From sequence record NC_134263.1: a DNA stretch of 64,000 nt; one strand, written 5' to 3'. Positions within the stretch are counted from its first letter, which is position 1, and the number at the start of each line of letters is the position of its first letter. The notes beneath the pieces were generated by a model. The model did not search any database. It had not been told where the DNA came from and was given only the letters and a program-made list of their open reading frames with translations. Of the stretch, positions 5,311 to 60,141 are shown one piece after another. A program made the position numbers and the translations under genes. Origin of the DNA: Escherichia phage T5_ev219.

Positions 5311-5745
5311 TTAATTGTCTAGCAAATTTTCACCAGCAGGATCATTATCCCCAACAGCTACCAATTTAAAAGGTAATAATTTCAGTTGCTTTAATAACGC
5401 TTTTCCTGGAGAAGAACCCAACATTGCTAGGGCTGGATAACCAGCGTTATGTAACGCAACTGCCTTAAATACAGATTCAGCGATCAATACTACTTTTTCA
5501 TCTCCATTGAGAGTTTCTAGTCCCCATACACACTGGGTAGTAGAATAAGTAAAATATTTAGCTTCAAAGGGACACTTACCATGACCTTTTGGAGCAGAAG
5601 GATTATAAGTTTGATAGCCCCTCAACATCCCAGAGAAGTCATACAACGGGACTGTTAGCCATCCTTCCGGACTTAACCAGCAATGATATTTTTCTGTATC
5701 AAATCCTCTAGATAAGAGGTGCTGTGTTAGCTCATCAACATTCAT
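5311..5745 (-). CDS. stand-alone TOPRIM-domain protein
   Basis: IAESVF (Toprim Glu) and VAVGDNDPAG (DxD) motifs; start moved to MNVDELT because ORF-track start lies upstream of the promoter at 5776-5804; RBS GAGAGAGGAA. Confidence 0.5.
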   Translation of the reverse strand: MNVDELTQHLLSRGFDTEKYHCWLSPEGWLTVPLYDFSGMLRGYQTYNPSAPKGHGKCPFEAKYFTYSTTQCVWGLETLNGDEKVVLIAESVFKAVALHNAGYPALAMLGSSPGKALLKQLKLLPFKLVAVGDNDPAGENLLDN

Positions 5746-5775
5746 ATCTGGTTCCTCTCTCAAATTTATAGATAT

Positions 5776-5804
5776 ATTATACAGAGAATTTAGCATTCAA
5801 GCAA
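5776..5804 (-). promoter_or_regulatory. sigma70-type early promoter
   Basis: ATTATA 5776-5781, AAGCAA 5799-5804, 17-bp spacer, conserved downstream ATAAATTTGAGAGAGG leader. Confidence 0.6.
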
Positions 5805-32348: not shown

Positions 32349-32759
32349 ATGACTACTCCAACTCAGTGGACTGATGAACTGTTCGAAAAAATGTCTTCCG
32401 AATACGTTGCTCGTATGGAGCAATTCCCAGAGGATGAACGTCCGGGTGTTAGCATGGAAATTGTTAGCGAAATTGCCCAGGAAAATGGTGTAACTCCGAA
32501 CGGTTTTCGTATGAAGCTGACTAAAGCAGGTGTGTATATCAAGAAAGCTGCTGGCTCTGCTTCTAAATCTAGCGCATCTACTGGAGAAAAAGCTTCCGGT
32601 GGTTCTCGTACCTCCAAAGCCCAGGCTCATGCTGACCTTCGTTCAGCGTTCTCTGATGCTGGCTTAGCACCAGATTTTCTGGATGATGCAATTATCGACA
32701 AACTGACCGGTAAAGCGGCTGCTCATCTGGCAGAAGCAATCCGAGCTATCACTAAGTAA
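32349..32759 (+). CDS. hypothetical protein (136 aa), highly optimised codons
   Basis: RBS AAGGAAA; host-like codon usage suggests high expression. Confidence 0.55.
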   Translation: MTTPTQWTDELFEKMSSEYVARMEQFPEDERPGVSMEIVSEIAQENGVTPNGFRMKLTKAGVYIKKAAGSASKSSASTGEKASGGSRTSKAQAHADLRSAFSDAGLAPDFLDDAIIDKLTGKAAAHLAEAIRAITK

Positions 32760-33538: not shown

Positions 33539-34510
33539 ATGACTAATGTAAAAGAATTTATTAAACGCTGTCAAGAAGCATATTATCAGGGTATGTCTTT
33601 AATCTCTGATGAGGAGTATGATTGCCTGGTAAAACGCTTCCCGTTAGAAGAAGAGATCGGGCCTAGGGGTGATATTCCACATCTGTATCGTATGTATTCT
33701 TTACAGAAAGTTTACTATAACCGTGGAGATAAATCACCATTCAATCCTTTAGGTCAGGTGGAAACCGATAAGTTAGATGGTTGTGCAATTTCTCTGCTAT
33801 ATATTAATGGCGAATTTGTTCAAGCATTAACCCGTGGTAATGGTATTCTGGGGAATGATGTCACAAGCAACGTAAGATTGCTGAACATTCCTAAAAAGAT
33901 TTCCCAAAAAGTACCTACTCAAATCACTGGTGAAGTTCTAATTACAAAAGAAGTAGAAAATAAACGTAACTTTGCCTCTGGTGCTATTAACCTCAAAGAT
34001 AGTGATGCTTTCGTACAACGTATTGGAGAAGGTGGTTTAATCTTCGTTGCATACGGTATCCAGTGTTCTGCTGAATCTGTAGGTATTACAGAAGCATATT
34101 TAAAAGATATGCTTTGGCTGGAGAATGAGAACTTCTTAACAGTTGTTAATGTGCGTTCCTTCTTTAAATGGATTCCGACGGACGGTAAAGTTGTTCGTAT
34201 TAATGACAACAACAAATTCTTCCGTGAAGGCTGGACTAATAAATTCCCTCGTGGAGCATTCGCCATTAAAGAGGATGAAGAAGGCGAGATTACAACTCTT
34301 ACTAAAGTTGAATGGCAGGTAGGGGCTTCTGGTAAAGTAACTCCAGTCGGTTATTTTGAACCAGTAATTATTGATGATGCTACAATTGTTAAAGCGACTC
34401 TTAATAACGTTGATTATATTAACTCTCTTGATCTAGAGATCGGTTGCCAGATTCGAGTGATTCGTGCTGGTGGTGTAATCCCGTGCATAGTAGAGCGAGT
34501 ATACGATTAA
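33539..34510 (+). CDS. ligA: NAD-dependent DNA ligase, adenylation/OB part (subunit A of split ligase)
   Basis: LigA N-terminal Ia-like region and adenylation motif KLDG (ETDKLDGCAISLLY); no Zn-finger/HhH/BRCT, which are in the next ORF. Confidence 0.8.
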   Translation: MTNVKEFIKRCQEAYYQGMSLISDEEYDCLVKRFPLEEEIGPRGDIPHLYRMYSLQKVYYNRGDKSPFNPLGQVETDKLDGCAISLLYINGEFVQALTRGNGILGNDVTSNVRLLNIPKKISQKVPTQITGEVLITKEVENKRNFASGAINLKDSDAFVQRIGEGGLIFVAYGIQCSAESVGITEAYLKDMLWLENENFLTVVNVRSFFKWIPTDGKVVRINDNNKFFREGWTNKFPRGAFAIKEDEEGEITTLTKVEWQVGASGKVTPVGYFEPVIIDDATIVKATLNNVDYINSLDLEIGCQIRVIRAGGVIPCIVERVYD

Positions 34511-34712: not shown

Positions 34713-35492
34713 ATGAAAATCGAAATTCCAACACAATGTCCCTCTTGTGGTTCTAAGCTAGATCTTGTCAACGGACAATTATTCTGTCGTAATAAGTCCA
34801 ACTGTCCAGCGCAATCAAGTAAGTTAATTGAGAACTTCTGTTCAAAAATGAAGTTAAAGGGTTTTGGCCCAAAAACTATTGAGAAGCTGGAGCTGACGAA
34901 GATTTCAGAACTATTTTACCTAACCGAAGAAGATTTGGTTAGAGCCGTGGGTAGCAAGGTTGCCGCTAAGTTAATTAGCGAATTAAATACTAAAGTTCGC
35001 GGAGACATTGACTTTGGTTCAGTTCTCGGTTCTTTAGGAATCCCTCTAATCGGAGAGGTTGCAGCAAAGAAATTATCCCAAAATTGCACTAGCTTCCACG
35101 ATGTGAAGGCTGACGGCAAGGCTGGAGAAAACTATAAAGCCTGGCTAAATTCCCCACAGGGCAAGGATGTTATCGAATTACCGTGGAAATTCACAACTGG
35201 TATTAAAGGTGCTAAAGCTGAGGTCATCATCACTGATGGTCTAGTAGCCCAACCAAACGGAATAACGGTATGTATTACCGGATCTTTGCAAGATTTTGCA
35301 AATAGAACGGATGCAACAAACTATTTAGAAGGTCTAGGATATACGGTTAAGAAATCCGTTACCAAAGACGTCAAATACCTAATCTGTGAGGATGAATCTA
35401 AGCGTTCTTCCTCATCTTATAAGAAAGCCGAAACGAATGGGATAGAAATCCTGTCGATTAAAGAACTATTGGAGAAAAATAATAATGTCTAA
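34713..35492 (+). CDS. ligB: NAD-dependent DNA ligase C-terminal part (Zn finger, HhH, BRCT; subunit B)
   Basis: CPSCGSKL...C..C Zn finger, helix-hairpin-helix GFGPKTIEKL / LGIPLIGEVAAKKL, BRCT-like ITVCITGSL. Confidence 0.75.
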   Translation: MKIEIPTQCPSCGSKLDLVNGQLFCRNKSNCPAQSSKLIENFCSKMKLKGFGPKTIEKLELTKISELFYLTEEDLVRAVGSKVAAKLISELNTKVRGDIDFGSVLGSLGIPLIGEVAAKKLSQNCTSFHDVKADGKAGENYKAWLNSPQGKDVIELPWKFTTGIKGAKAEVIITDGLVAQPNGITVCITGSLQDFANRTDATNYLEGLGYTVKKSVTKDVKYLICEDESKRSSSSYKKAETNGIEILSIKELLEKNNNV

Positions 35493-36337: not shown

Positions 36338-37807
36338 ACCTTGTTTAACGTGCAAGCTGTAGTGTTGAAGATGCTTCTAGCTTCAGAACAGAAGCAAATA
36401 GCATTGGAAACATTCTCAAAACTGCATAAAGATCATTTTAATGACGCTTTCTCCTCAATTTACCAAGCCGTCCAGAATTATTATAAAAAATATAACACAA
36501 TGCCGTCCATTGACGCACTGATGCTTGAGGCTAATAGGAACGCCCGCCTTTCTCAAGCTCTAGTCGTTTTAGCTAACACTCAAATTCCAGAAGTTAGCAT
36601 GGAACAGGCACTTGAAGTCCTAGAGGCCGAGTATACACAGGATTTATTCCTGAAGCTTCTAGAAACAGACGTGCTTCAAGATTTAACAATGCTGGATCAG
36701 GGAGAAATTCTTAACCGAGTTGCCTCCCTTCACTTAAAATTAGAAGAGAAAGTAACGAATACTGGAAAAGTATTCAACGCAGATAACATGCGTATTTTCC
36801 AGAGAGAAGAAGATACCAAACTGAACTTAATCGCTCTTGGTATTTGTAATGAGTTCGACGCTCAAATTGGTTTAGCTCGCACAGAAACGTTACTGCTTGG
36901 TGGTTGGCGTGGTACTGGTAAATCCATTATCTGTTCAAACATACAGGTTCAGCAATATTTGAATGGAGATATTGCTCCATACTTCTCAATTGAGATGAAA
37001 GAACATGAAGTATTTAGACGTAATCTAGCCATGTTAGCTGGTGTATCAGCACTAGCAATGCGTAATAATACTCTAGAAGGTGCAGCTCTGTTGAGATTAG
37101 CCAGAACTAGAGCTAGGATGTTTAACGGTGGTGAAGAGCTTTTCGATAACTTCGTTAAACAGTACACAATGGCTAAGATGAGTGATTTCTACGATATGGA
37201 AAGTAAGCTAATAGAAGGGTATGAACTACATACTCCTATGATTATTGTTTATGATCCTGAGCTGTCTATTACAACAGTTGACGTAGAATTAAATAAATTA
37301 GTTGCTAGATATGGTGATAAAGTTACAGTAGCTTTACTTGACTATATTAACCAAACCCGACTTCCAGATTCTAAAACCATTGATATGTATGACTGGAAAG
37401 AACAGATGGTTGTTAGCTCGTCTTTCAAATCTATCTGCCAGAAACATAACGTGGCTGGTGTAGCTCCTTACCAGATTGATCAAGATGGTAGAACACGTAT
37501 GTCAAAGGGGATTCTTGATTCCGCAGACATGGCTGCTAATCTTAATGCTGCAAAAGCTGATAATGGTCAAGGTGCTATTATGTTTGACTTCGTTAAGACT
37601 CGTTCTTCTGATAGTGTGAAGTTTATGCCTAAAATGAACTGGGAAACCCTACGGATGGATAACACTACCAACCTAGCAATGGAAGATATATCTCAAATGG
37701 AAGCTGAGTTCGTTATCCCTATTGAGAAGGATAAGCCGGCTCAATCTAAACGTGCTAAGAAAGACAAAGCTGAAAATTCAACAGGTGAACAGGCCAGCGA
37801 TATATGA
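36338..37807 (+). CDS. DnaB-like replicative helicase (RecA-fold ATPase)
   Basis: Walker A GGWRGTGKS, Walker B IIVYDPEL; start moved to MTLFNVQ (RBS AAAGGAGA) because the ORF-track start lies in the terminator. Confidence 0.65.
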   Translation, partial: TLFNVQAVVLKMLLASEQKQIALETFSKLHKDHFNDAFSSIYQAVQNYYKKYNTMPSIDALMLEANRNARLSQALVVLANTQIPEVSMEQALEVLEAEYTQDLFLKLLETDVLQDLTMLDQGEILNRVASLHLKLEEKVTNTGKVFNADNMRIFQREEDTKLNLIALGICNEFDAQIGLARTETLLLGGWRGTGKSIICSNIQVQQYLNGDIAPYFSIEMKEHEVFRRNLAMLAGVSALAMRNNTLEGAALLRLARTRARMFNGGEELFDNFVKQYTMAKMSDFYDMESKLIEGYELHTPMIIVYDPELSITTVDVELNKLVARYGDKVTVALLDYINQTRLPDSKTIDMYDWKEQMVVSSSFKSICQKHNVAGVAPYQIDQDGRTRMSKGILDSADMAANLNAAKADNGQGAIMFDFVKTRSSDSVKFMPKMNWETLRMDNTTNLAMEDISQMEAEFVIPIEKDKPAQSKRAKKDKAENSTGEQASDI

Positions 37808-38334
37808 TAACACAGGAACGACTAAAAGAACTGTTTGACTACTCCCCAGAGACTGGGGAGTTTACTAGAAAAGTATCTAGAGGCAATCAGAAAGCTGGTA
37901 GTATTGCGGGTACTCTAGATAGTGGATACATACGGATAAAGGTAGATAGAAAATTATACTTTGCACACCAACTAGCCTTCCTATATATGGAAGGATATAT
38001 GCCAGAGGAAGTAGACCATATTAATCGAATTACTTGGGATAATAGATGGATTAATATTAGGCCATCCACCCGGCAAGAAAATAGCAGAAATAAAACAGCT
38101 AGAAGTAAATCTGGATACTTGGGAGTTTTCTGGTTTAAGCGGGATCACAAATGGCATGTAAGAGTAGTAAATTCTATGGGAGAAAAAGTTCACGGTGGGC
38201 TCTTTAATTACGCAGATCTAAAGCTTGCAGTCACTAAAGCCAATGAACTACGTCTACAATTACATGGAGAAAATGCTGTTCAAGAGATCTTTGATCCAAC
38301 TAAGTATCCTTCACTGGAGGAGTTAAATTCATGA
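37804..38334 (+). CDS. HNH homing endonuclease, copy 2
   Basis: Paralog of 15203..15751 (LAFLYMEG...VDHINR...DNRWINIR...SGYLGVFW); overlaps helicase stop and primase start by 4 nt each. Confidence 0.75.
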   Translation: MITQERLKELFDYSPETGEFTRKVSRGNQKAGSIAGTLDSGYIRIKVDRKLYFAHQLAFLYMEGYMPEEVDHINRITWDNRWINIRPSTRQENSRNKTARSKSGYLGVFWFKRDHKWHVRVVNSMGEKVHGGLFNYADLKLAVTKANELRLQLHGENAVQEIFDPTKYPSLEELNS

Positions 38335-44195: not shown

Positions 44196-44961
44196 GTCTT
44201 GGGGCGAAACTACTGGCGGTTCTAACGATAAAATCGAATTCCTGAAGTTCAACAACGGTATCACTCGTGTTCGTATCGTTTCTGGTGTTCTTCCACGTTA
44301 TGTCTATTGGCTGACTAATAAAGAGGGTAGCGTAGCTCCTTTCGAATGTCTCCGTTTTAACCGCGACAAAGAGAGCTTTGTTCGTGGTAAAGCTGACCCG
44401 GTTCATGAGATGGGCTTCTTTGAGAAAGAGCTGGATAAAGATGGCAATCGTGTTCCGCTGAAACCGAAGAAAAACTATATCGCTTTTGTTATCGACCGTT
44501 CTGATAACAAACTGAAAGTAATGGAAGTCAAAGCTACTATTCTGAAAGGCATCCAGTCTATCATGAAGCAGTTGAATCTGGCAACTCCGTTTGATATTGA
44601 TATTTCTATCGAGAAAAAAGGCAAAGGTTTCGATACTGAGTATGATGTACAGCAGATTGCTGCTATGCAGTTCCAGATTAAGCTGCAAGATCCTAACAGT
44701 GCGGAATCTAAGCAATATGCTGCGGATGTAGATCTGATTGGTGAAGCTATGTGTGACGAAGATGGCGACATCATTAAGTTCGAGAAAGTTCCTTCTCTGG
44801 AACAAACCTATCCAGTTCCTACCTATGAAGAGCAGAAAGAAGCAATTCAAGCCTTCATGGAAGGTCGTGAGAATAAAGATGATGATGCCAAATCTGGTAA
44901 CAGCAATGCTGGTTCCCAGAAAGGTATTGACTCAGAAGCTGCAAGCGATCTGGACGACTAA
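44188..44961 (+). CDS. putative single-stranded DNA-binding protein (acidic C-terminal tail)
   Basis: Position within replication module, highly optimised codons, C-terminal DSEAASDLDD tail typical of phage SSBs; no motif-level proof. Confidence 0.4.
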   Translation: MAKSWGETTGGSNDKIEFLKFNNGITRVRIVSGVLPRYVYWLTNKEGSVAPFECLRFNRDKESFVRGKADPVHEMGFFEKELDKDGNRVPLKPKKNYIAFVIDRSDNKLKVMEVKATILKGIQSIMKQLNLATPFDIDISIEKKGKGFDTEYDVQQIAAMQFQIKLQDPNSAESKQYAADVDLIGEAMCDEDGDIIKFEKVPSLEQTYPVPTYEEQKEAIQAFMEGRENKDDDAKSGNSNAGSQKGIDSEAASDLDD

Positions 44962-44967
44962 TAAATA

Positions 44968-44992
44968 GAGGGGCTTCGGCCCCTTTCTTTTT
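44968..44992 (+). terminator. rho-independent terminator
   Basis: Hairpin GAGGGGC-ttcg-GCCCCT followed by TTCTTTTT. Confidence 0.7.
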
Positions 44993-44997
44993 AACCA

Positions 44998-45974
44998 ATG
45001 AGAATATTATTTAGTGCTGATCATCATATCAAACTAGGACAAGATAAAGTTCCAAAGGAATGGCAGAAGCGTCGTTTCCTGATGCTAGGAGAACGGTTAA
45101 ATGATATATTCCATAATCATAACTGTGATCTTCATATTGCTGGTGGTGATATTCTTGATGTTGCCGACCCGTCGTCAGAAGAAATAGAACTGCTTGAACA
45201 GTTCATGTCAAGACTTGACCACCCAGGTAAAATCTTTACTGGAAATCATGAAATGTTAACTAAAACGATTTCATGTCTATATCATTATGCAGGAGTTATA
45301 ATAAGGTAACGAGTGGTAAGTGGGAAGTAATTACCAAACCATATCGTTCCCCTGAATTTGATATTGTTCCGTATGATGAGATCCATAAATCCAAATGGAA
45401 ACCGTCTGAATCAAAACTATGTTTCACGCATGTTCGTGGTGAAATCCCTCCACATGTAAAACCAGAAATTGATCTAACTAAGTATAACTGTTATGATACT
45501 GTAATTGCTGGCGATTTACATTCTTATACTAATAGCCAGACTATCGGATCTACTAGACTTCTCTACCCAGGGTCTCCATTAACTACAACGTTCCATAGAG
45601 AACGCACAAAAGGTACAAATGGTTGCTTTATCGTTGATACCGACACATTAAAAGTAGAATGGATTGAACTAGGTGATTTACCACAACTGATTCGTAAAAC
45701 AATCGGAGCCGGTGAAGAGATGGAACCTAGTGATTATGATCGTGTAGTCTATGAAGTTACTGGTGACGTTGTTCAATTAAAGTCTATCAAAGACTCTGAT
45801 TTATTAGATAAGAAGATTAACCATCGAGTTACTAAAGACGCTAAGTTAAATCTTGTTGATCTTGATATGTTAGGTGAACTTGAACTTTACTTCCGTGAAG
45901 TCGAGAAGCTATCTCAAGGCGACATTGATAGAATCTTGGCTAGAGCTGCGAAATATGTCAAAGATTACAATTAA
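44998..45974 (+). pseudogene. SbcD/Mre11-like nuclease split across two frames (possible frameshift)
   Basis: Frame 1 (44998..45309) carries phosphoesterase motifs I-III (DHH, GGDILD, GNHE); frame 0 (45273..45974) carries downstream HVRGE and GDLH motifs; frames switch near 45260-45310. Confidence 0.55.
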
Positions 45975-47793
45975 GACACTAAAATTTAGTAACGTTATGT
46001 CTTACGGTAAGGACATCGTAATTCATTTCGATAAGAATCCAGTTACTCAACTAATTGGTGGCAATGGGCTGGGGAAATCCACCATCGCTACGGTTATCGA
46101 GGAATTGTTTTATAACAAGAACTCACGTGGTATTAAGAAGGATGCTCTGTTCTCCTGGTCTACTCCGAAAAAAGAGTATGATATGCACGCTTACTTCTCA
46201 AAAGATGAAGATGAGTATGAATTGCATAAAGTAGTTAAATCCACTGCTAAAGTAACCCTTATTAAGAATGGAGAGGATATTAGTGGACACACGGCAACCC
46301 AAACATACAAGATGATTGAAGAGATTATGGGTGGTGACTTCCAAACATTCACCAAACTGATTTATCAATCGGTGGGTTCCAATCTAGATTTTCTAAAGGC
46401 AACGGATGCAACACGTAAGGCTTTTCTTGTTAACTTGTTCAATCAAGAACAGTACAAAGAAATGTCAGAAACTATTAAGGCTGATCGTAAAGAAATAGCA
46501 AATACCTTAAATAATTTGCAGGGCCAAATGGCTGTAATTACGAAAATCCTTAATGGAAAGAATAATCTGGGAACTTTGCAGGAACCTGTAGAAGTACCGG
46601 AGTTTGATGAAGAGCCATTAGCACAAGAACTTACTGAATCGAAAATTAAGGCGGCATTAGCCAAGTCTCAAGAGGCTAATATTACTAAATTGCGTAATTT
46701 GGACAAAGCTGTACAAGTTGCCGAACAATCTTTCGAACCTTTCAAAAATTTACCCGCGCCCACCGACCAAAATGAAGAGATCTCGAGTGTTACGCGTGAC
46801 CTAACGATTGTGACCTCACGTGCGGGCGAAGTTAAGAAACGTTATCAGAAGTTCAAGCAAGAGGCTTCAAATACTGAATGCCCTACTTGTGGTACTCATC
46901 TAGATACAACTGCTGCTCAAAAAGCAATGGATATGGCTAGAATAGAATATGATCCTTTGTTCAACGAGAAGCAATCTCTTGAAGCTAAGCTAGAACAGTT
47001 GAAGAAAGAACAACTTGAGTACGTTGCGTATACTAGAGCAAAGGATGCTTTGGATAAAGCAGTGGTAGCTAGAGACGAGTTCAAAAATTCAATGAGTGAT
47101 GCTTCTTTTGAAGAACTCAATGTGCAAATCCTACAGGTGCAAATCCGACAATTAGAACAGGAAATCGCTGATGGCCGCTCTAAGGTTGCAATTGCTAAAG
47201 AGCATAATGCAAATGTCGAATTAGCCAATGCAAAATATAAAGCGAAACTAGAACAGATTGAGAAAGCTGAGGCAGAAATGTCTGAGATTACTTCCAAACT
47301 GGATGAGGTATCAGAAGCTGTTGCTGATCTCGATATTCTGATTGCTGCTTTGAAAAATCTGGTGGGATATAAACTAGAGCATAGTGTGAAAGTATTTGAA
47401 GAACTAATTAATAAATACCTTTCTATTATGACTGGTGGTAAATTTGCACTTGGATTTGAACTTGATGAAACAAAATTACAAGTAGTAATCTTCAATGATG
47501 GAAACCGTACCAGTATGGAGAATTGCTCTACTGGTCAGCAAAGTCGAATCAACCTAGCAACTCTGTTAGCTATTCGAATGCTACTAACATCTATTAGTAA
47601 AGTTAATATTAATCTTCTATTCCTTGATGAAGTAATTAGCTTTATTGATACAAAAGGACTTGATACTCTAGTTGAATTATTAAATGAGGAAGAAAGCCTA
47701 AATTCTATCATTGTTTCTCACGGGCATACGCATCCATTAGCCCATAAGATTACTGTTAAAAAAGATGCAGAAGGATTTTCCTACTTAGAATAA
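45955..47793 (+). CDS. SbcC/Rad50-like ATPase
   Basis: Walker A GGNGLGKST, long coiled coil, zinc hook CPTCG, Walker B LLFLDEV; start at MSKITIKT. Confidence 0.8.
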   Translation: MSKITIKTLKFSNVMSYGKDIVIHFDKNPVTQLIGGNGLGKSTIATVIEELFYNKNSRGIKKDALFSWSTPKKEYDMHAYFSKDEDEYELHKVVKSTAKVTLIKNGEDISGHTATQTYKMIEEIMGGDFQTFTKLIYQSVGSNLDFLKATDATRKAFLVNLFNQEQYKEMSETIKADRKEIANTLNNLQGQMAVITKILNGKNNLGTLQEPVEVPEFDEEPLAQELTESKIKAALAKSQEANITKLRNLDKAVQVAEQSFEPFKNLPAPTDQNEEISSVTRDLTIVTSRAGEVKKRYQKFKQEASNTECPTCGTHLDTTAAQKAMDMARIEYDPLFNEKQSLEAKLEQLKKEQLEYVAYTRAKDALDKAVVARDEFKNSMSDASFEELNVQILQVQIRQLEQEIADGRSKVAIAKEHNANVELANAKYKAKLEQIEKAEAEMSEITSKLDEVSEAVADLDILIAALKNLVGYKLEHSVKVFEELINKYLSIMTGGKFALGFELDETKLQVVIFNDGNRTSMENCSTGQQSRINLATLLAIRMLLTSISKVNINLLFLDEVISFIDTKGLDTLVELLNEEESLNSIIVSHGHTHPLAHKITVKKDAEGFSYLE

Positions 47794-49597: not shown

Positions 49598-49606
49598 TCT
49601 ACATAT

Positions 49607-49656
49607 AAAATAAATAATAAACCCCAGTGGATTTTGTCCACTGGGGTTTTCTTTTA
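49607..49656. terminator. bidirectional rho-independent terminator between convergent early and late blocks
   Basis: Hairpin ACCCCAGTGG-attttgt-CCACTGGGGT flanked by A-run upstream and T-run downstream. Confidence 0.7.
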
Positions 49657-51375
49657 TTGTGATACTAATTGTACCTTTAATTGCTCAAGCTCTTTCTCTA
49701 GATCTTCAATCCGTTTAATAAGATCTTGCACAACATGCATAGTGTCAAGAAGCATTGGAGTTGTATCTAATTCCTTTTGCTCCTGCTCTATTCCGTCATC
49801 ATTATAAAATTTTCTAGTTTTTACATAAAGTGGTTCTATAGTCTCTACTTGCTGAGCAATAACCCCACGTCGAACACGAGATTTTTCATCGTTATTATAT
49901 ACAAAGGATTGGAATTCTAATCCTTTTAATACCTCGATGGACTTAGTTGCGTCTATAGCCTTAATATCATGCTTTAAGCGAGAATCAGATACAGCATTTA
50001 ATTGCAAAGTATAGGTTGCTGAAGCACCAGGCCACCAAGAATAAAAATAAATACTATTATTATTCGGCTGAATTTTTAAACGCACACCAAATTTATTATC
50101 ATCATCTCCCGCTACCTGCCAACAAGAATCTGCAAATGAGCCTAAGTCATTATGAATTAATCCAAAATGTGCAGATGTCTTATACCCTGCGGAAGAAGAC
50201 TGGGAACCGCTCAATATACTATTAAAGTTAAATGTACTACCTATATTGACCTCGTTCTGAGAAAGAGTACCTTGTACACAGCCAGTCTGAGACCACGCCA
50301 TGCCAGTAACTAATCTAGCTTTAAAACGATCCGTTACAAAATCCCCATTATCTACAAGCTGGGCGGAATTCGATTTACCGGTAGATTTATTGTCTATTAG
50401 TAGTTCAGTAGAGTAGGTGCCACCAATAGTAGCTTTAGCTCGTAGTGTACTTACAGCCTCACTACTAGTACCTACTTTATACTCAGATAGTACACTCCCG
50501 CCATAAACAGTAGTACCAGTATTAGGTTTGACAGCATCACCACTAATAACACTCCACGATGTATTCGCAGCAACGAACCCGCCTGATGCGCGGATTACCC
50601 AGACGCCGACGAAGTTGCGCCCCATAATTTCATCAGCGCATCTTCCGTATACCGCACTACTTCCCGCAGCATTTAACGAAAGGCGTTGCGTACCTAAGTT
50701 TGTGCCAGGCTGCGCACCCACAACGGCATCTCCTTGACTCGAATAGCTAAATGCGCCATTAGCGCCGTAAGCTATAATGCCACCTGCATCACCCGTGATG
50801 TTGGGAGCGCCTGAATCGAACACTAGACCATCAGCATTTGAGTTTGCCGTGCCACTTCCTGCACCGTCGCCACGCCCATAAAGAGCGGCTAATGAACCGA
50901 CTTGAACGCCGTTACGGTCTGGAACGCGGAATGTAGTTGATCCGTCACCCTTAGAATACTTGCCGCGCTGAAATTTATCAGCCAGCCATTTAGAATCATC
51001 TATAGCACCCACCATTTGAGCGTAAGCCCAAAGCTCCGGCCAGTCAGCCCTGTTAAGAAGCTGCCCATCAGAAACTACCTCATAAGGTTGAATATACGCA
51101 CGGCTATCGCGAAGGTGGAAATCACCTACACCGTAATTCATAACACCATTCATAGTGGGACCGACTGTACCGGTGTTAATCTTATTCTCTACCCAACGTT
51201 TAGTTGCGGCATCATAGTCCCCAACAGGATCTCCCGCAAGAGGGGTGGACCCAATAGGACGCACATTTAACCATGCTGCTGCACGGTCTGCTAAGTCACT
51301 TAAATTATTATTCTTGTTAAGTGACTCATTTTTAAGTTTTGTAATATCCGTAGGAATTACTGTTTTAGTTACCAT
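49654..51375 (-). CDS. distal tail fibre protein with phage tail-collar domain and C-terminal S74-type intramolecular chaperone
   Basis: Tail-collar-like WPELWAYAQMVGAIDD...GSTTFRVPDRNG; C-terminal SDSRLKHDIKAIDATKSIEVLKGLEFQSFVYNND...GVIAQQV chaperone signature. Confidence 0.7.
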   Translation of the reverse strand: MVTKTVIPTDITKLKNESLNKNNNLSDLADRAAAWLNVRPIGSTPLAGDPVGDYDAATKRWVENKINTGTVGPTMNGVMNYGVGDFHLRDSRAYIQPYEVVSDGQLLNRADWPELWAYAQMVGAIDDSKWLADKFQRGKYSKGDGSTTFRVPDRNGVQVGSLAALYGRGDGAGSGTANSNADGLVFDSGAPNITGDAGGIIAYGANGAFSYSSQGDAVVGAQPGTNLGTQRLSLNAAGSSAVYGRCADEIMGRNFVGVWVIRASGGFVAANTSWSVISGDAVKPNTGTTVYGGSVLSEYKVGTSSEAVSTLRAKATIGGTYSTELLIDNKSTGKSNSAQLVDNGDFVTDRFKARLVTGMAWSQTGCVQGTLSQNEVNIGSTFNFNSILSGSQSSSAGYKTSAHFGLIHNDLGSFADSCWQVAGDDDNKFGVRLKIQPNNNSIYFYSWWPGASATYTLQLNAVSDSRLKHDIKAIDATKSIEVLKGLEFQSFVYNNDEKSRVRRGVIAQQVETIEPLYVKTRKFYNDDGIEQEQKELDTTPMLLDTMHVVQDLIKRIEDLEKELEQLKVQLVSQ

Positions 51376-51384
51376 TATAAAACC

Positions 51385-51663
51385 TTACGCCCACTCTCTA
51401 AGAGGCTGTTCCAACTGAACTATAAAAGGCTCAAAGTATTCATAAGTAAAGGATTCACCAAGAATCCTTACATTAACATAGTATCCTTCATTACGGGTGT
51501 ATCTAGGTTCCTCATCGCCTGGTGCGGAGATTTCAGTATAAGTATAGCCAATCTCGTCCAGGATAAACATATCTCGTAACTCTTCATTTTCTTGCCAGTT
51601 TATTCCAACTAAGAAATTTTTATATTCGTTCTTGTCTTTAAATTTTAATATTATATCTTTCAT
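51385..51663 (-). CDS. hypothetical protein (92 aa) inside fibre locus
   Basis: ORF between the two fibre genes. Confidence 0.45.
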   Translation of the reverse strand: MKDIILKFKDKNEYKNFLVGINWQENEELRDMFILDEIGYTYTEISAPGDEEPRYTRNEGYYVNVRILGESFTYEYFEPFIVQLEQPLREWA

Positions 51664-54086
51664 ACAGACTCCCTCATTTGACGATCCGTTAATTCTTTAT
51701 GCCAGATTCTAAAATTTCTGACATGCCCGAAAAGATGTTTCCCACCATCTGCACTTATGCCGCCGATACGAAGATTTTTAGAAAAACCAGCTTTCCATGT
51801 TGTTTTCACAGGCGTACCGAACACAGCGTTTGTTACGCATCTTAATTCTGAGCTTTTGTTGCAAACAAAACCCGTCACCATTTTCCCGCTTGTTTTTGTT
51901 GATACTGGCGTAAATGACTGACTGACCCCCAACTGAGAATAAGGCAGCGGCTCTACTGTATCGCTTGATGGAACCCTGAAAGCAACTAATAACTGGTCTT
52001 CTGGTGCATTTGCTACATGTACTATCCTTGGTGCTGAGTTTGGGGCTATATCCCAATTTCTATTTACCTCAACAAGTAGACTTAACGGTATAGAGGATGG
52101 TTGATTGCAATCAGTTGGTATTAGGACCATGTCACTAGCTCTTGTGGCGGGCGTACTGCTTGTAATTATGAACGATGAAGCGCATGACCCTTTTTCAATT
52201 TGCGGAGTAGTCACCTCAACAAAACTAGAATCATCATAAGTGGCATCGGCTTTTTGCACAATCTGAATTCCACCGTTAATATATGCTGAGTTATCTGTAA
52301 CTTTATAAACAACCTCTATAGCAACCCATTCACCATCCTGAACAACATTTTTCACAGTGATGTTAGACGCATCCTGCCCGGACGTGAATGTAGCTAGCGT
52401 GTCGCTGTCAATAAAAAGAACAGCAACAGTAGCAGGTGTTTCTCCTTTGCTAAATCTAGCAACAAATCTTAGATTATGTCCTCTTGCCCTAAACGATAGT
52501 GTAACTGCGTCATCTTTAACTACAGATATATTGTTTTGCGAGTTACCTGATATAATCCCATATGTACCAGTAGAGCCAGAGTAAACACCAGGGCCGAACG
52601 TTGCATATTTAAAACCACGATCATCGGTTTTTGTTTCACTTTTGCTTAGCCCTGAATTCGAGTTCCATAATTCTGGCGCGTTTGAATTCGCAAAATAGTT
52701 AGTTCTCTGACCTTCAATAAGCAGACCTTCTTTTTCAAAACGTGGCTCATTAATTTCTGCAATGGTAAGAGCGCCGGACTTATTGATATAGGTCGCAGTT
52801 GATGCACGAGTAAAGCTAACAATCTTGTCGCTAGGCAGTGTTATTTCCTCATCACCAACTGTTATTTTTTTATAGCCTGGTGCAAAGCCGGTGATCATAT
52901 CTAGAGAATCGTTAAACGGTATCCATACATCTGGAAGAGGTTGAATGTCGGGGGTAGAATTAGCAGCAGCTTCTGATCTATCAGCCTCAGTTTTTGAACG
53001 ATCGGCTTCAGTTTTAGCAGTATTAGCACTATTAGCAGCAGCAGTAGCCTGTTCCCCCGCTTCTGCTGCAGAATTAGCAGCATTAGTTGCAGAAGTTGCA
53101 GCTTGGTTTTTTAAAGTTGTTGTCTCAGATACCGCGCTATTCTTAATACCTTGTGTATCTGTTTTTAGTTGCTCAACATCCGCTTTTAAAGCTGTTGTCT
53201 CTGTTACAGCACTATTTTTAATGGCCTGGGTATCAGATTTTAACTGTTCTACATCCGCTTTTAAAGCTGTTGTCTCTGTTACAGCACTATTTTTAATGGC
53301 TTGGGTATCAGATTTTAACTGTTCAACATCTGATTTAAGTACTTGAATAGCAGCTACAGATTGGCTGGCAGAAGTTGCAGATCCCGCAGCATTAGTTTCA
53401 CTAGCCTTAGCTTTTGTTTCCGAGGTTTTTGCATTGGTTTCAGAGATTTTTGCCGCAGATGCCGATGCAGCAGCTTGCTCAGAGAATATTTCCGCCTCAT
53501 TCCTAAAACCGTTAGAAGCAGCAGCTGATTGAGCTGCATTAGTCTCACTGACCTTTGCATTATCCTCACTAAGTTTTGCCGCTGCAGTCGAAGCAGCAGC
53601 ATTAGTTTCACTAGCCTTTGCCTTATCCTCACTAGCTTTTGCATTAGTTTCGCTAGTTTTAGCTTTTGTTTCACTAGCTTTTGCATTAGTTTCGCTAGTT
53701 TTAGCTTTTGTTTCACTAGACTTAGCATTAGTTTCAGAGGTTTTTGCAGCTGCAGCTGATTCTGCAGATTTAGTAGCAGAAGTGGCAGACTGAGTAGCAG
53801 AGGTAGCAGATTGAGTAGCAGAAGCTTCAGAAGCTCCAGCAGAAATAGCAGCTTCCTGTTCAGAGTTCTTAGCATTAAGCTCTGAAGTCTTAGCTGCTAT
53901 TTCAGAATCTTTTGCAGCCGCAGCAGATTTAGCAGCAGCCTCTATAGAAGATACTAACTCATTAGCAGTAATAGAGCTAATAGAATTTCCAAAAGTTACT
54001 GTGTATCTAGGAAATTTACTAGCAGTAGCTTTAGTATCATCAATATTTAATATTTGTTGTACAATAATCTTAGTAGTTATTGCCAT
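51660..54086 (-). CDS. L-shaped tail fibre protein, proximal part (808 aa, A/S/T/E-rich repeats)
   Basis: Long low-complexity repeat region (SETNAKASETKAK..., ALKADVEQLKSDTQAIKNSAVTETT x3), position next to pb4/pb3-like genes. Confidence 0.65.
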   Translation of the reverse strand: MAITTKIIVQQILNIDDTKATASKFPRYTVTFGNSISSITANELVSSIEAAAKSAAAAKDSEIAAKTSELNAKNSEQEAAISAGASEASATQSATSATQSATSATKSAESAAAAKTSETNAKSSETKAKTSETNAKASETKAKTSETNAKASEDKAKASETNAAASTAAAKLSEDNAKVSETNAAQSAAASNGFRNEAEIFSEQAAASASAAKISETNAKTSETKAKASETNAAGSATSASQSVAAIQVLKSDVEQLKSDTQAIKNSAVTETTALKADVEQLKSDTQAIKNSAVTETTALKADVEQLKTDTQGIKNSAVSETTTLKNQAATSATNAANSAAEAGEQATAAANSANTAKTEADRSKTEADRSEAAANSTPDIQPLPDVWIPFNDSLDMITGFAPGYKKITVGDEEITLPSDKIVSFTRASTATYINKSGALTIAEINEPRFEKEGLLIEGQRTNYFANSNAPELWNSNSGLSKSETKTDDRGFKYATFGPGVYSGSTGTYGIISGNSQNNISVVKDDAVTLSFRARGHNLRFVARFSKGETPATVAVLFIDSDTLATFTSGQDASNITVKNVVQDGEWVAIEVVYKVTDNSAYINGGIQIVQKADATYDDSSFVEVTTPQIEKGSCASSFIITSSTPATRASDMVLIPTDCNQPSSIPLSLLVEVNRNWDIAPNSAPRIVHVANAPEDQLLVAFRVPSSDTVEPLPYSQLGVSQSFTPVSTKTSGKMVTGFVCNKSSELRCVTNAVFGTPVKTTWKAGFSKNLRIGGISADGGKHLFGHVRNFRIWHKELTDRQMRESV
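53110..53330. repeat. in-frame tandem repeat, period 69 bp, about 3 copies
   Basis: Unit CATCCGCTTTTAAAGCTGTTGTCTCTGTTACAGCACTATTTTTAATGGC(C/T)TGGGTATCAGATTTTAACTGTT repeated at 53183, 53252 with a diverged copy upstream. Confidence 0.8.
53590..53750. repeat. in-frame tandem repeat, period 42 bp (21-bp sub-unit)
   Basis: GCATTAGTTTCGCTAGTTTTAGCTTTTGTTTCACTAGCTTTT repeated at 53641 and 53683 with degenerate flanking copies. Confidence 0.75.
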
Positions 54087-54508
54087 TATCTAGTTACCCC
54101 ATCACTGATAAATACTTTACCCTCCATTATACGAAAAGAGCTAATAGCGGATCCTATGACATCTCGTGTCATAATTATATCATAATATCCTGCAAAACGT
54201 TGGCGAGGATTATATTTATCTCTCTCTTTGGTAGCTTTTTCACCAATATTATCTACCGCCTCTACAGGTAAACTTATAGCTATAGCACCTTGAGCAGCAT
54301 CAATAATTTTAGTAGTAAAAGATGCCAAAGTTTCCGCGTTCTCATCAAGCCCGGCCTTTATAGTACCCCTTAGGGAATACCCTGTTAAGTTAACAGGGGT
54401 ATTTGTAGGTGGGTAAGTACTATCATCAACATCTAAGAATTGCATCATTAGACCATAAGGTACTTTCTCATCTATCACTAGGTCTATAACTCTATTTTCA
54501 GTACTCAT
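54086..54508 (-). CDS. tail/collar protein (T5 p132-like by size and position)
   Basis: 140-aa ORF between fibre and pb4-like gene; assignment by synteny and length only. Confidence 0.45.
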
Positions 54509-54514
54509 TATTTA

Positions 54515-56587
54515 TTACCTTATATGGATATACCCACTATTTAGGTCTATCTTCATCTTGTAGTATGCCTCAGGGTTTCCTGATAACGCAGCGTTCCTAT
54601 CATAAATGATGTTAACACCGATCTGAGATAAGAAAGCATTTCCTGCTACAATTTTATCTGCCGTCACCGTTCCGTTAACAATCATGTTTCCGTGGAGAAC
54701 CATTGCAGGGTTAACCCAACCAGACCCATTCCATTGCCTTGTAAATGCTGATTGTGGGGCATTACTATTAAATTCAGTTAATACATCATATTTAACTGGA
54801 GGAGAACCGAAGTTACTTTGAAAGAAGGAATTAGCTTGTCCATCGTCCCAACCACCTAAACCTGCTATACCTACAGAGTACATCCCAGGACCACGTTGTC
54901 CATCATGCCCTATAGTACCTTCAGTACCACTCCACTGAACCACATCTGACCAACTAGTACCCTCTAATAACCTATTAGTAACTGGATCAAGCGTACCCGT
55001 AGTCGCATAGATATTTTGTGTCATATCTGTACGGTTAGGTGGAGTTTTTGACCAACCAGGAGGTGGATAATCTTGTTCTAGTGGTTTAGCAGGTAGAGAT
55101 GTTGCTAACTTATAAACAAATACTGTCTGTTTACCTTGTAAACCAGTCTCAATATCTACGTCACCATTTGGTGTCCCAATTACTACACCACTAGAGATGC
55201 GCAAGGTAGTACCATCATAACGTATCCATTGTGTAGCGTTACCAATGTCTAATTTAGCTTTGGCAGAGGTATTATCCATACCCATCCAAATACCAGAGTT
55301 ATTATCCCCCCAAGATTTACCTTGAGTGTAAATTGCTGGATTATCCTTACCAGATAAGTTAGTCATGATAAAGTTCGCAGCATTAATATCTCTAGTAATT
55401 ACTTTACCGTCAACGTTAACAACACGGTTTATAGGGTCAAAAGAAATAGGTGCTTTTCCTTCTTCATCTAGCAGACCAATGTTAATAGCACCAGTAGCTG
55501 CGTCGATTAAGAATGTCTGTCTCCAGATTTCTCCATCTTTCATGCTGCCCTTAATAAAGGCATAATTAACATCAATACCCGTCTCATTGACAAAGCTGTT
55601 GTCTAGAGGAGTATCTTCATTAAGTATAAACGTTACAGGAGCTGATTCTGTTATATCTTGCTTATTTGGTCCCCAGGCAATTGATGATACCTTAAAAGTA
55701 TGCTCAACTTTCCATGGGAATGATATAATCGTTGCAGCTCTAGCAGCTCCAACGTTTATCTTTTGAGCTTTAGCCCAGCCAGTCTTGGCATATTCTTCAG
55801 AGTTTATATAAGTAACCAGAAATTCACGGACATTAGCACCAGCACCACGTTCCCAGTCCCATTCTACTCTAACATCATATCGTTCCTTACCATCTGCAAT
55901 TCGTGCAGCTTTAAAGGCAATGTTAGTAGGTGCAGTAGGAGGTACGAAATTATAAGCTACAGTGAAAACGCTAGGATACTCATAATAACCAGATGAGTCA
56001 ACTGTAACACCATCTGGCATCGTAACTTGACCAGATATTCTGATCTTATAGTCGCCAACAGGAACACCACCAAATTTGATAGTAGGTCCCAGCGCGCCTA
56101 TATAATATTTAACCCATTCACTATCTTCTGATATAGCACTTTTTAATTCAATAGTGCAGTAACTAGCTTCACCAGCAGTCTCTACAACAACTATTGGAGC
56201 ACCAACACCAACGTCAACGGGTTCTGATTCAGATCTTGCTGCAGTAATTATTGGCTTTTCCTTTGTTCTAAAGTTAGTTTCATTAGAGAGGTTGATACCA
56301 ATCTTAGCTTCTAGTAACTCTGAGTCAATAATTGAGTCATAGAAAGCCCCCTGAATCTCATAGGAGGTAGAGGGGGTTAAATTATTAATCATTACGAAGA
56401 AAGTATCTATACCGGTGTAATCACGTCTATCTATACTTTCTCCTATTTTTAACCAAAAAGATCTACCAATAACATCATAATCAGTATAAATGGAGTGCTG
56501 GACATAAGCCAAAGTATATCCAGTCATTATACTATTTAAGACCATTTTGGCTGGTGCATTATTTGAAATCATTAAATGGATGCCCAC
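54515..56587 (-). CDS. baseplate/tail tip protein (T5 pb4-like by size and synteny)
   Basis: 690 aa, beta-rich; position between collar and hub genes. Confidence 0.5.
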   Translation of the reverse strand: MGIHLMISNNAPAKMVLNSIMTGYTLAYVQHSIYTDYDVIGRSFWLKIGESIDRRDYTGIDTFFVMINNLTPSTSYEIQGAFYDSIIDSELLEAKIGINLSNETNFRTKEKPIITAARSESEPVDVGVGAPIVVVETAGEASYCTIELKSAISEDSEWVKYYIGALGPTIKFGGVPVGDYKIRISGQVTMPDGVTVDSSGYYEYPSVFTVAYNFVPPTAPTNIAFKAARIADGKERYDVRVEWDWERGAGANVREFLVTYINSEEYAKTGWAKAQKINVGAARAATIISFPWKVEHTFKVSSIAWGPNKQDITESAPVTFILNEDTPLDNSFVNETGIDVNYAFIKGSMKDGEIWRQTFLIDAATGAINIGLLDEEGKAPISFDPINRVVNVDGKVITRDINAANFIMTNLSGKDNPAIYTQGKSWGDNNSGIWMGMDNTSAKAKLDIGNATQWIRYDGTTLRISSGVVIGTPNGDVDIETGLQGKQTVFVYKLATSLPAKPLEQDYPPPGWSKTPPNRTDMTQNIYATTGTLDPVTNRLLEGTSWSDVVQWSGTEGTIGHDGQRGPGMYSVGIAGLGGWDDGQANSFFQSNFGSPPVKYDVLTEFNSNAPQSAFTRQWNGSGWVNPAMVLHGNMIVNGTVTADKIVAGNAFLSQIGVNIIYDRNAALSGNPEAYYKMKIDLNSGYIHIR

Positions 56588-59421
56588 TCCACAGACTGTT
56601 CTCCATCATCCCCTTCAGCCCTAATACGAAAATACAATTTTCTATTTATACCTAGAGCACCGCTGTTCTGGAGAGCAAAGTCTGCCTTATTATATGTTAA
56701 TAAATAGTCATAAGTATACTGATTTTCAATACGTACACTTCTTAACATCCTATTTTGCGAATCGTGTATTTCAAGTGTATAAAATATACTCTCTATTATA
56801 TCTTCTTCAGGTATTCTATCCCAAGCTAGTTTTACATCTGGGCCAACAAACTCAGTTACATCTCCAGAAGCAGTATTAGTTACCCTAAAATTAGATACTA
56901 CACTAAGGTTTTTAGCAGAGTTAAGTTCTATAGACAGAGTCACCGGGGAACTTCTTCTACCATTAATATCTACTGCTCTTATCTCAAATATAGCCAGACC
57001 TGCTGGTTCCCCAATTATTTCTTGGATCATACGTTCGTTAGGATTGGTCTCTAACTGTTGTACTATGTAAGGTTCGGCATGGCCTGAGTGCACAATAGAG
57101 TAATAAACTACATTATTGGTTAGACTCGGAAGCCAGGATAACTCACCATTTTTACCTATAGAGCCTACTAAACCGCCAGGAGTAGGGGTATACTTAAAGT
57201 CCCTAGGAGGAAGGACATTATTACTAATATCGGGAATATCATTACCGCTATTATCAACCTGCTCAGAGTTGATGAATACATCTTCTCCATACTCCTGTAA
57301 GGTAACATTTATCTTACCCTCTCTAGAGTTTTCAACCTCATCAACTAGGAAATACTTTTTGTTCCACCCGTAACGGTCATACGTGAATGCAATAGCATCA
57401 TTGGGTTCAATCCCTATGAACTGGTATGGTAATGAGAATGAAAGTGTTCTTGAGTATCTGGATTTCTTAAGTTCTCTATCCGCAAAACTTCTTGCAGTAT
57501 AGTAGTTAGTAATATTAGCAAAAGATAGTTGTAATTTTTTATCTAGGTTCTTGTCCTGTTCCTTATACTTGGAATTATAGAATGTAATAGAATTAGTTTT
57601 CCAGCTAAGGGCGGGATCTACGATAGATGCTTGAACTGAGTTGAATTTATTTCTACCAGTAGTATCTGATAGCTCCAAATCACCGTAAGTATCTAGAAAA
57701 TTAATCTCTAATGGAGTATTAGAGTATTTTTCTACAGTAACCCTATACTGGCCAGATAAATTGTTAATAGCCCCACCATAGGACTCTAACAAACCTTGCA
57801 CATTTTTAAATACTGATTCAGATGTATCCAGAATAGTATTCATTTGTACTATTTGTCTATTTTCTGCTAGTGGATCAGTCCACCCAACGTATCTCCAGTA
57901 TGGCTGCCAAGATACTTGGTAGGATTCATCTATAATATCTAAGATAGCTGCTTCTTGTATCAGTTGCTGAAGCGGGAACTGATCAATAGTAATGTTAGCG
58001 CCGTATCTATCTGAAGTTAGATAATCAAGCGTTTGCCAGATACCATTTAAACTAGTACTATCAGCAGTTACTCTACCATCAGAATGATAGACTTTTACTT
58101 TTTTACCTTGAATTTCAGCACTAACTTCAGGAATCTCAGTCCTATTTTCATTAATAGTGAAGCGCACCACTGCGTACGCAGTATCTAGTAGTTTATACCT
58201 AGCATCCCAGTACTCCGGCCCATTGCCATTCATATTCTGAAGGTAAAACCCACGTTCTTTAGCTATATCTACTAGTACTTCAGAAGCCGTTTGGTCAGGT
58301 TTTCCATGATACGTCCAAATCCTTATATCACCATTACCATCATTATACTTATATTCCTGACCATGCACAGAAGGACTACTAGAAGATATTCCTGATGCTA
58401 TTCTTTGCATGGTGTCTCCGGCTACTTTTTTAACACCGAAACAGGTTCTAGCAGAGCTATCATTAGAGTCCATACAAATCATAGGGTTATCCCCAAAGGA
58501 AAAGTCAAGAAAACCGTCTATCTCTCCTTCAGCAAAAGCATATACTACGTAAACTATATTAGGATTGTGTAATTCCGTATCCGCAAAAATAGGTATTCCC
58601 GGTATTTTCTGTACACCATAAACTACTGGTATATACTTAGCAGCAAGGTTAAAATCTATATCTACTTCTTTAGTAACAGTCTCATAATACTTTTTAAGAC
58701 TATAACTTCTAGATAGTCCAAATAGCTTTTTCTTAGACTTTAGCTTGTATCTTTCTTCCTGTACCTGATACTTTGCTAGAATAGAGATACTTTTATTGGC
58801 ATGAAAGAAACCGTAGTCTTCTTGGTACTCAAGTCTTTTAGCCCCGTTAGATGGAACTAACTGCCCTGCTACAACCTCAAGCCCTCTATGAGAAGCATCA
58901 TCAGTAAATCTACCATTAACCCTATCAAAATCATAGAATTGATTAGAACAATTCCAAGTAATTGTGGAGGTTCCAACCCCAGAAGTACTAATGTTGTCCT
59001 TAATACCCCCGCCGGTAATTCTCCCTCTAAAGTATAATAAAGGCCCGTTTGTGTCTGGGTCTACAGGTAAAATAGAACCATCCTCTGTAATAATTGCTTG
59101 GTGGATTGATACTATTCTATCTAAAAAGGACACACCATTCTGCACTAATTTCAGTACTTCATCCTGCGCTGTACCTGTAATAGTAAAAGATAGACTGCCA
59201 ATAGATAAATCTCTATTTTGTTTATGTGTGCTAATAGATTTAACTTTACCGGCCTGGTACAAAATACCATTATATAGTACATCTCTAAAATAATCAGTTA
59301 AATAGATAAAAGCAGTACTAGTACCAGTAGAGCCAGGTAATTCTAGGGAAATTAGACTAGCAGTTTTTATTCTGCTATTATTTTTTAAGTAGTTTCTAGC
59401 ACTATCTAGTATTTTCTTCAT
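56572..59421 (-). CDS. baseplate hub protein (T5 pb3-like by size and synteny)
   Basis: 949 aa ORF following Dit-like gene; overlap of 4 nt with upstream gene. Confidence 0.55.
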   Translation of the reverse strand: MKKILDSARNYLKNNSRIKTASLISLELPGSTGTSTAFIYLTDYFRDVLYNGILYQAGKVKSISTHKQNRDLSIGSLSFTITGTAQDEVLKLVQNGVSFLDRIVSIHQAIITEDGSILPVDPDTNGPLLYFRGRITGGGIKDNISTSGVGTSTITWNCSNQFYDFDRVNGRFTDDASHRGLEVVAGQLVPSNGAKRLEYQEDYGFFHANKSISILAKYQVQEERYKLKSKKKLFGLSRSYSLKKYYETVTKEVDIDFNLAAKYIPVVYGVQKIPGIPIFADTELHNPNIVYVVYAFAEGEIDGFLDFSFGDNPMICMDSNDSSARTCFGVKKVAGDTMQRIASGISSSSPSVHGQEYKYNDGNGDIRIWTYHGKPDQTASEVLVDIAKERGFYLQNMNGNGPEYWDARYKLLDTAYAVVRFTINENRTEIPEVSAEIQGKKVKVYHSDGRVTADSTSLNGIWQTLDYLTSDRYGANITIDQFPLQQLIQEAAILDIIDESYQVSWQPYWRYVGWTDPLAENRQIVQMNTILDTSESVFKNVQGLLESYGGAINNLSGQYRVTVEKYSNTPLEINFLDTYGDLELSDTTGRNKFNSVQASIVDPALSWKTNSITFYNSKYKEQDKNLDKKLQLSFANITNYYTARSFADRELKKSRYSRTLSFSLPYQFIGIEPNDAIAFTYDRYGWNKKYFLVDEVENSREGKINVTLQEYGEDVFINSEQVDNSGNDIPDISNNVLPPRDFKYTPTPGGLVGSIGKNGELSWLPSLTNNVVYYSIVHSGHAEPYIVQQLETNPNERMIQEIIGEPAGLAIFEIRAVDINGRRSSPVTLSIELNSAKNLSVVSNFRVTNTASGDVTEFVGPDVKLAWDRIPEEDIIESIFYTLEIHDSQNRMLRSVRIENQYTYDYLLTYNKADFALQNSGALGINRKLYFRIRAEGDDGEQSVEWASI

Positions 59422-60032
59422 AAACTTTCCCGTAAATTTAATGAGATGCCGGAATATGTTCCGTTATTATTTAGTGTAGATCCGAAAGCATCACCATTCA
59501 TGAGTTTTGTTCTAAATAGTATTCCGTTAAACACTGGTTTCTCAGCCCCAGTAGTAGTTATAAATAAATCAGGATATAAGTTTATAGACCACGTATTGCC
59601 TGATTTATTGAATGATGTTATTTTATATACTTTTGGGTGGTTAGATAGCTTAAATAGATCCCCAGGTTTTGGAGTACCTGTTAGGAGCCCTTTTGTATCC
59701 ATAGTTATAGTAGAACCCTTCTGCCCCGCAGGTATGTTTACTAGACTAGTATTACCTCTAACCCTGAAGGCCTCATATTGTGGTAGTATAACATCTATAT
59801 AACCACCGGTCCTTTTGTACTCTAGAATAAAAGCATCTAGAACACTATATTCATCTGGAAATAATTCTGGGTAGGAAATATTTATACCCCAGTATTGAGC
59901 AGATACCTTAACTTCGTTAACTTTACCATTAGGTAACTCATCACGAATTACTGGGTCATTATCAATCAGGTTAACACTTTCGAATCCTAATCCTGAAAGT
60001 TCTGGATTCGTGTATGGGTCTGGTAGTCTCAT
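59418..60032 (-). CDS. distal tail protein Dit (T5 pb9-like by size and synteny)
   Basis: 204 aa ORF immediately after tape measure gene. Confidence 0.55.
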   Translation of the reverse strand: MRLPDPYTNPELSGLGFESVNLIDNDPVIRDELPNGKVNEVKVSAQYWGINISYPELFPDEYSVLDAFILEYKRTGGYIDVILPQYEAFRVRGNTSLVNIPAGQKGSTITMDTKGLLTGTPKPGDLFKLSNHPKVYKITSFNKSGNTWSINLYPDLFITTTGAEKPVFNGILFRTKLMNGDAFGSTLNNNGTYSGISLNLRESL

Positions 60033-60141
60033 AGTTAATTTCTCCTCTTAGATACAATTATTATAATAGTATTAGAAAATTTTATCAAGAAATTTTTATT
60101 TTTCCATAAAGAAAAGGAGGACTCAAAGTCCTCCTCCAGTT

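Follow-up and report, generated by a model that had tools for sequence, protein, structure and literature searches.

The gp47/gp46 proteins of phage T4, homologues of Mre11/Rad50, constitute a phage recombination nuclease that is encoded by adjacent nuclease and ATPase genes. The D12/D13 locus of T5-like phages shares with E. coli SbcCD and with Mre11-Rad50 the calcineurin-like phosphoesterase domain and an adjacent SMC-like ATPase gene, and it would fall in the same functional class as T4 gp47/gp46. Counterparts at the same locus have been annotated in phage genomes as HASG4_00153/00154, FFH1 ORF125/126, and T5_ev212 VUF55559/VUF55566 ("putative recombination endonuclease"), with the gene order D10 helicase-like, D11, D12, D13, D14, and D15. 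We analyzed this locus in a stretch of 64,000 nucleotides from Escherichia phage T5_ev219 (hereafter the window; all positions refer to it). The intact Tequintavirus D12 is a 325-aa ORF, while the T5_ev219 gene lacks one T and is therefore read as pieces of 103 and 233 aa. The D12 gene of HASG4 is nucleotide-identical to that of T5_ev219 save for one base.

Organization of the D12 Locus

In T5_ev219, the SbcD/Mre11-like gene D12 is broken into two overlapping ORFs on the + strand, the frame of the second lying one base back (−1) relative to the first. The features of the locus are the following:

44969–44984 (+): intrinsic terminator hairpin after D11, GGGGCTTCGGCCCC followed by a T-run; a terminator is annotated at the homologous HASG4 position
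44998–45309 (+): ORF1, the N-terminal D12 fragment, 103 aa, codon phase 1
45013–45027 (+): phosphoesterase motif I (DHH), in ORF1
45139–45159 (+): phosphoesterase motif II (GGD), in ORF1
45241–45252 (+): phosphoesterase motif III (GNHE), in ORF1
45273–45974 (+): ORF2, the C-terminal D12 piece, 233 aa, codon phase 0
45298–45299 (+): site of the single-base deletion, aligned as GTT ATT AAT in relatives and GTT AT- AAT in T5_ev219
45423–45440 (+): phosphoesterase motif IV (FTHVRG), in ORF2
45507–45524 (+): phosphoesterase motif V (AGDLHS), in ORF2
45955–47793 (+): D13, SbcC/Rad50-like ATPase, 612 aa, intact, with matches to AAA_23, AAA_15, SMC_N, and SbcC_Walker_B

All five motifs of the calcineurin-like phosphoesterases were found, but on two frames in T5_ev219. 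The preliminary description had placed the split between motifs III and IV, with motifs I–III in a frame ending at 45309 and motifs IV–V in a second frame starting by 45273, and the ORF coordinates, the motif positions, and a tblastn search bear this out. When the intact 325-aa protein of HASG4 was used as the tblastn query, residues 1–108 mapped to frame +1 and residues 102–325 to frame +3, with identities of 95–100%; since a single protein maps across both frames in this way, the split is not a product of chance. Residues 1–100 of ORF1 are authentic D12 and are followed by an out-of-frame I-R-stop. The authentic part of ORF2 comprises only 45300–45974 (NKVTSGKW... to the stop), corresponding to residues 101–325, and its first nine codons (MSISLCRSY) are out-of-frame sequence.

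Regarding the neighborhood, the start of D13 overlaps the end of D12 by 20 nt, and D13 is read in one frame with 98.9% identity to HASG4. Downstream of D13 lie a PDDEXK endonuclease-like gene (D14) and then the D15 flap endonuclease, and D12 is situated in the replication and recombination module of a Tequintavirus (T5-like) genome. The D12 ATG (44998) stands almost directly after the terminator hairpin and its T-run, with no recognizable Shine-Dalgarno sequence. In some relatives, an HNH endonuclease gene is located between D11 and D12 (L026:4934–5341, a Logan SRR30129155 contig, and L030:45732–46037, JLBYU40). In L026, the HNH insertion measures 527 bp and sits at the position of window 45002, the HNH ORF overlapping the D12 start; between D11 and D12 of the window there is no HNH insert.

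In the family comparisons, ORF1 matched Pfam Metallophos with an E-value of 1.8e-6, above the gathering score (28.7–29 bits vs 21.5). The repaired D12, which equals the HASG4 protein, matched PHROG 100, "SbcD-like subunit of palindrome specific endonuclease", over residues 1–323 with an E-value of 2.2e-63. Together with the adjacent SbcC/Rad50-like SMC ATPase partner found in D13, these matches lead us to infer that intact D12 is a divergent metallophosphoesterase of the SbcD/Mre11 type.

Nature of the Lesion

Alignment of the gene with those of HASG4, VEc33, FFH1, and T5_ev212 gave a single gap, in which a TT pair is reduced to one T: the context reads GGAGTTATTAATAAGG in the four aligned relatives versus GGAGTTATAATAAGG in T5_ev219, and the junction strings at 45298/45299 are GTTATTAAT with the T and GTTATAAT without it. 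Restoring the T yields a 325-aa protein (...YAGVI-NKVTSGKWEV...) identical to HASG4 D12, and translation across the deletion would need a −1 shift of the ribosome. The break falls after residue 100 of the repaired protein, and both domain matches span it (Metallophos, residues 1–131; Metallophos_2, residues 1–203).

An A-run had earlier been singled out in the region of the frame switch. The sequence CTAAAACGATTTCATG is indeed present at 45260–45275, but it holds merely an A4 tract and is not the lesion; the run CTAAAACG (45260–45267) is the same in relatives, and the missing base is 33 nt downstream of it. The A-run at 45262–45265 was therefore rejected as the switch point: the missing base aligns to 45298/45299, and shifting at the run would alter the 12 residues that come immediately after motif III.

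When compared to HASG4 over 44911–46070 (1,160 nt), the window differs only by the gap, with 0 substitutions, so the lesion is either extremely recent or not biological. The flanks of this segment are diverged from HASG4 by about 3.5%, and the identical stretch over D12 resembles a mosaic patch acquired by recent recombination. One lesion and 0 substitutions over 1,160 nt do not describe a decaying gene, and the earlier proposal of a pseudogene in that sense found no support.

Conservation of D12 among Relatives

A comparison with orthologs in related phages, as the preliminary description had suggested, was run, and the relatives checked carry the T and a single ORF, namely one 978-nt CDS of 325 aa named D12, recombination endonuclease subunit, or SbcD-like. 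A 991-nt query from the D12 region matched 443 phage records, 436 of them covering most of the query, and in every one of the relatives listed (40/40), 992 nt aligned to the 991-nt query. The 71-nt deletion junction gave 116 matches among phage records, none of them identical, and all those listed span 72 nt. The exact junction had no match in IMG/VR, where the intact version used as a control gave 18, and none in metagenome contigs or in bacterial and archaeal genome contigs.

At the protein level, 902 of the 907 Demerecviridae records encode the D12 orthologue without a break in frame, and the identities reach as low as about 48%. This set spans phages of Escherichia, Salmonella, Klebsiella, Vibrio, Proteus, and Pectobacterium, and each of 60 sampled rows was single-piece (60/60). 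Additionally, the exact D11 protein was found on three independent contigs (two Logan assemblies and phage BB1), which are different phages with D12 intact. Each is about 95% identical to the window over 8.8 kb, with some 410 substitutions, and no internal single-base indel other than the missing T separates it from the window. One of the three is the contig that bears the 527-bp HNH insertion. On these sequence comparisons, the lesion is established as a single-base deletion private to the T5_ev219 record, in an otherwise ordinary Tequintavirus D12 gene.

A Second Frame Break and Other Features of the Window

A scan for frame breaks against HASG4, T5_ev212, and JLBYU40 returned two real genes broken in the window and none in the relatives. 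Besides D12, the gene affected is:

5311–5796 (−): truncated Toprim/primase-like gene (PHROG 849), the conserved protein having 172 aa

Its frame is interrupted at about 5326–5327 by another 1-nt deletion private to the record, in the + strand context GCAAA[C/T]TTTTC, which represents a T5-to-T4 contraction with respect to ev212 and JLBYU40 and cuts the protein after approximately residue 141 of 172. None of the 115 records matching this site is identical, all listed rows carrying the extra base, and the exact truncated product was not in the protein collection. The other window-specific indels are situated in divergent or intergenic stretches, including an intergenic pair at 32759/32789 that also occurs in T5 itself.

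The NAD-dependent DNA ligase is likewise encoded by two ORFs on the + strand (33539–34507 and 34713–35489), about 200 nt apart. This ligA/ligB layout is the same in HASG4, T5_ev212, and JLBYU40, and the split ligase is therefore a conserved arrangement and not a lesion. Another feature is an ORF of 176 aa at 37804–38334 (+), which bears an HNH motif (DHINRITWDNRWINIR...ENSRN) and an AP2-like segment, and which is flanked by the DnaB-like helicase and primase genes, overlapping each by 4 nt. The segment containing it is missing from HASG4, and the ORF is for this reason probably a homing endonuclease insertion. Finally, about 5.3 kb after the dUTPase gene (49598–54918) have no megablast match to HASG4, and the tail genes at 54918–61131 are only about 77% identical to it; these stretches make up the variable tail-fibre and receptor-binding region.

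Programmed Recoding

Three options had been put forward for the frame switch. A sequencing or assembly indel and an inactivating mutation are weighed below, while a programmed frameshift lost its place, with no motif, significant structure, or conservation to sustain it. The sole feature that speaks for a −1 ribosomal frameshift or a transcriptional slippage evolved for D12 expression is the existence of two overlapping frames. An AGGAG does lie upstream of the break, at 45292–45296, but the same letters occur in every intact relative as ordinary A-G-V coding. A stop at 45261 in the frame of ORF2 confines any workable −1 shift to 45264–45309; neither a slippery X_XXY_YYZ heptamer nor an X_XXY tetramer occurs in the zero frame in 45240–45312, a range that covers this permissive stretch. 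No homopolymer of at least 5 nt is present in 44998–45974, so the gene has no long A or T run of the kind on which transcriptional slippage depends. The predicted structure downstream of the break (45300–45400) has a folding energy of −19.6 kcal/mol with z=−0.87, and it is not significant, as 37 of 200 shuffles were as stable. Moreover, the two-frame layout is shared by none of more than 900 relatives, and the junction is missing from four collections (phage records, IMG/VR, metagenome contigs, and genome contigs).

Known programmed −1 frameshifts, such as those of dnaX (A_AAA_AAG) and of the phage tail chaperones (G/GT), resemble the present case in the −1 relation of two overlapping ORFs. 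Those sites, however, combine a conserved slippery heptamer with stimulatory elements and are maintained across relatives, and all of these features are missing at T5_ev219 D12, where we found no slippery site, no stimulatory structure, and no conserved architecture. Programmed frameshifting and transcriptional slippage are rejected and effectively refuted; the probability that either evolved to express this gene is negligible.

Consensus Error or Genuine Mutation

T5_ev219 corresponds to LR597655.1 (PMC9961651). It is a plaque-purified isolate from an infant-gut virome described by Mathieu et al. 2020, sequenced by Illumina MiSeq, assembled with SPAdes 3.13 ("--only-assembler --meta"), and annotated with RAST, and it infected 27% of the test strains (PMC6969025). 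The authors reported high coverage and accepted DNA preparations even with a faint gel band, and the source paper is silent on a frameshift (PMC6969025). The depositor annotated only the 233-aa piece at 45273–45974, as "SbcD, putative exonuclease SbcCD D subunit" (VUF55621.1, on a 110,393-bp contig), as is evident because the protein collection contains ORF2 exactly but has no entry for the 103-aa ORF1. Looking up the exact proteins of ORF1, ORF2, and D13 returned no independent assembly or reads of T5_ev219.

We lean slightly toward a consensus error, at about even odds, with the T present in the phage itself. The missing T would then have been introduced into the deposited consensus by assembly or editing, and the real phage would make a normal full-length D12. 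The near-universal intactness of the gene across the family (902/907 Demerecviridae) is consistent with such an error, as are the viability of a phage able to infect over a quarter of the strains on which it was tried and an assembly made without read correction or polishing, in a study that accepted low-input DNA. The private 1-nt deletion at ~5326 points in the same direction, given that an imperfect consensus would be one common cause for both. Against an error stand the rarity of consensus indels in Illumina data outside long homopolymers, together with the high coverage reported, and the sister genome T5_ev212, which came from the same pipeline and shows no gene break over the homologous 64 kb. 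These same points, namely that MiSeq and SPAdes seldom yield consensus indels in a TT context and that T5_ev212 is clean, argue for a genuine recent deletion giving a null or near-null D12 allele, which would have arisen while the phage was being plaque-purified and amplified or not long before; we regard such an event as a real possibility of slightly less than even probability. The lack of any substitution around the gap suits a very recent event, and the break lies inside the phosphoesterase domain (Metallophos_2, residues 1–203), so truncation would inactivate the protein. Translation would stop at 45307–45309, after motif III, and leave a 103-aa fragment which, without the metal ligands of motifs IV–V, should be inactive; D13 may in addition be under-expressed through loss of translational coupling, given the 20-nt overlap of its start with the D12 end. 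Survival of the phage would then rest on D12 being dispensable on the propagation host. A genuine null is less easily reconciled with the 902 of 907 relatives that keep D12 intact although all were lab-propagated too, which argues that loss is counter-selected even in the short term, and it demands that a second independent loss-of-function deletion (~5326) be fixed in the same lineage. The "D" genes of T5 were defined by conditional-lethal amber mutants, an origin that would argue against a viable null for the T5_ev219 ORF, which we take to be D12 on a putative assignment. A literature search for a mutant phenotype or essentiality of D12/D13 returned nothing usable.

A genuine deletion might also leave the function in place, either by reassembly of two fragments (ORF1 and ORF2, the latter started from the ATG at 45273) or by rare spontaneous −1 slippage within 45298–45309, although we consider this very unlikely. 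A −1 shift inside 45298–45309 would restore the downstream frame with at most one residue altered; slippage at AUA-AGG before the UAA stop, for example, would give a near-wild-type protein with N101I, and AGG is a rare codon in E. coli. Since the natural D12 start is also devoid of a Shine-Dalgarno sequence, the lack of one would not count against an internal start at 45273. On the other side, the stretch contains neither X_XXY nor X_XXY_YYZ, re-pairing of the Ile-tRNA from AUA to AAU or UAU would be poor, and the downstream structure is not significant (z=−0.87). The split falls within the catalytic domain, and no relative is built as two pieces.

Should the deletion be genuine, the isolate would be a viable, broadly infective T5-like phage of the infant gut with a truncated SbcD-like D12 and a truncated Toprim/primase-like protein, a picture for which the odds lean somewhat to the negative. 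Such a phage would be a natural D12 knock-out, a modestly useful reagent for studying the role of the phage SbcCD-like complex, and a near-universally conserved recombination nuclease of the Demerecviridae would be dispensable on some hosts. More speculatively, selection could have favored the loss, e.g., by letting the phage evade a host defence that recognizes the D12/D13 complex. In practical terms, the analysis flags LR597655.1 for curation at 45298 and ~5326.

Comparison with SbcCD and Mre11-Rad50 Systems

The resemblance of D12 to the bacterial enzyme is confined to one end of the protein. The N-terminal 87 residues of D12, including motifs I–III, align with E. coli SbcD (PDB 4lty, 6s6v), but E. 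coli SbcD is very distant, with E-values of about 0.1 against the PDB entries, and D12 is shorter (325 vs 400 aa). Likewise, the match to TIGR00619 (sbcd) had an E-value of 5.7e-9 and 36.6 bits vs a cut-off of 77.65, with only the N-terminal 85 residues aligned. Falling below the curated cut-off, D12 was not assigned to bacterial SbcD sensu stricto (TIGR00619/PRK10966); it is a distant phage relative and not a bona fide equivalog. D12/D13 is the already-known, conserved SbcCD/Mre11-Rad50-like module of T5-like phages, with no sign of a new decoding mechanism, and, judging from their protein families, D12 and D13 would together make a recombination nuclease that processes DNA ends and hairpins, as T4 gp46/47 does.
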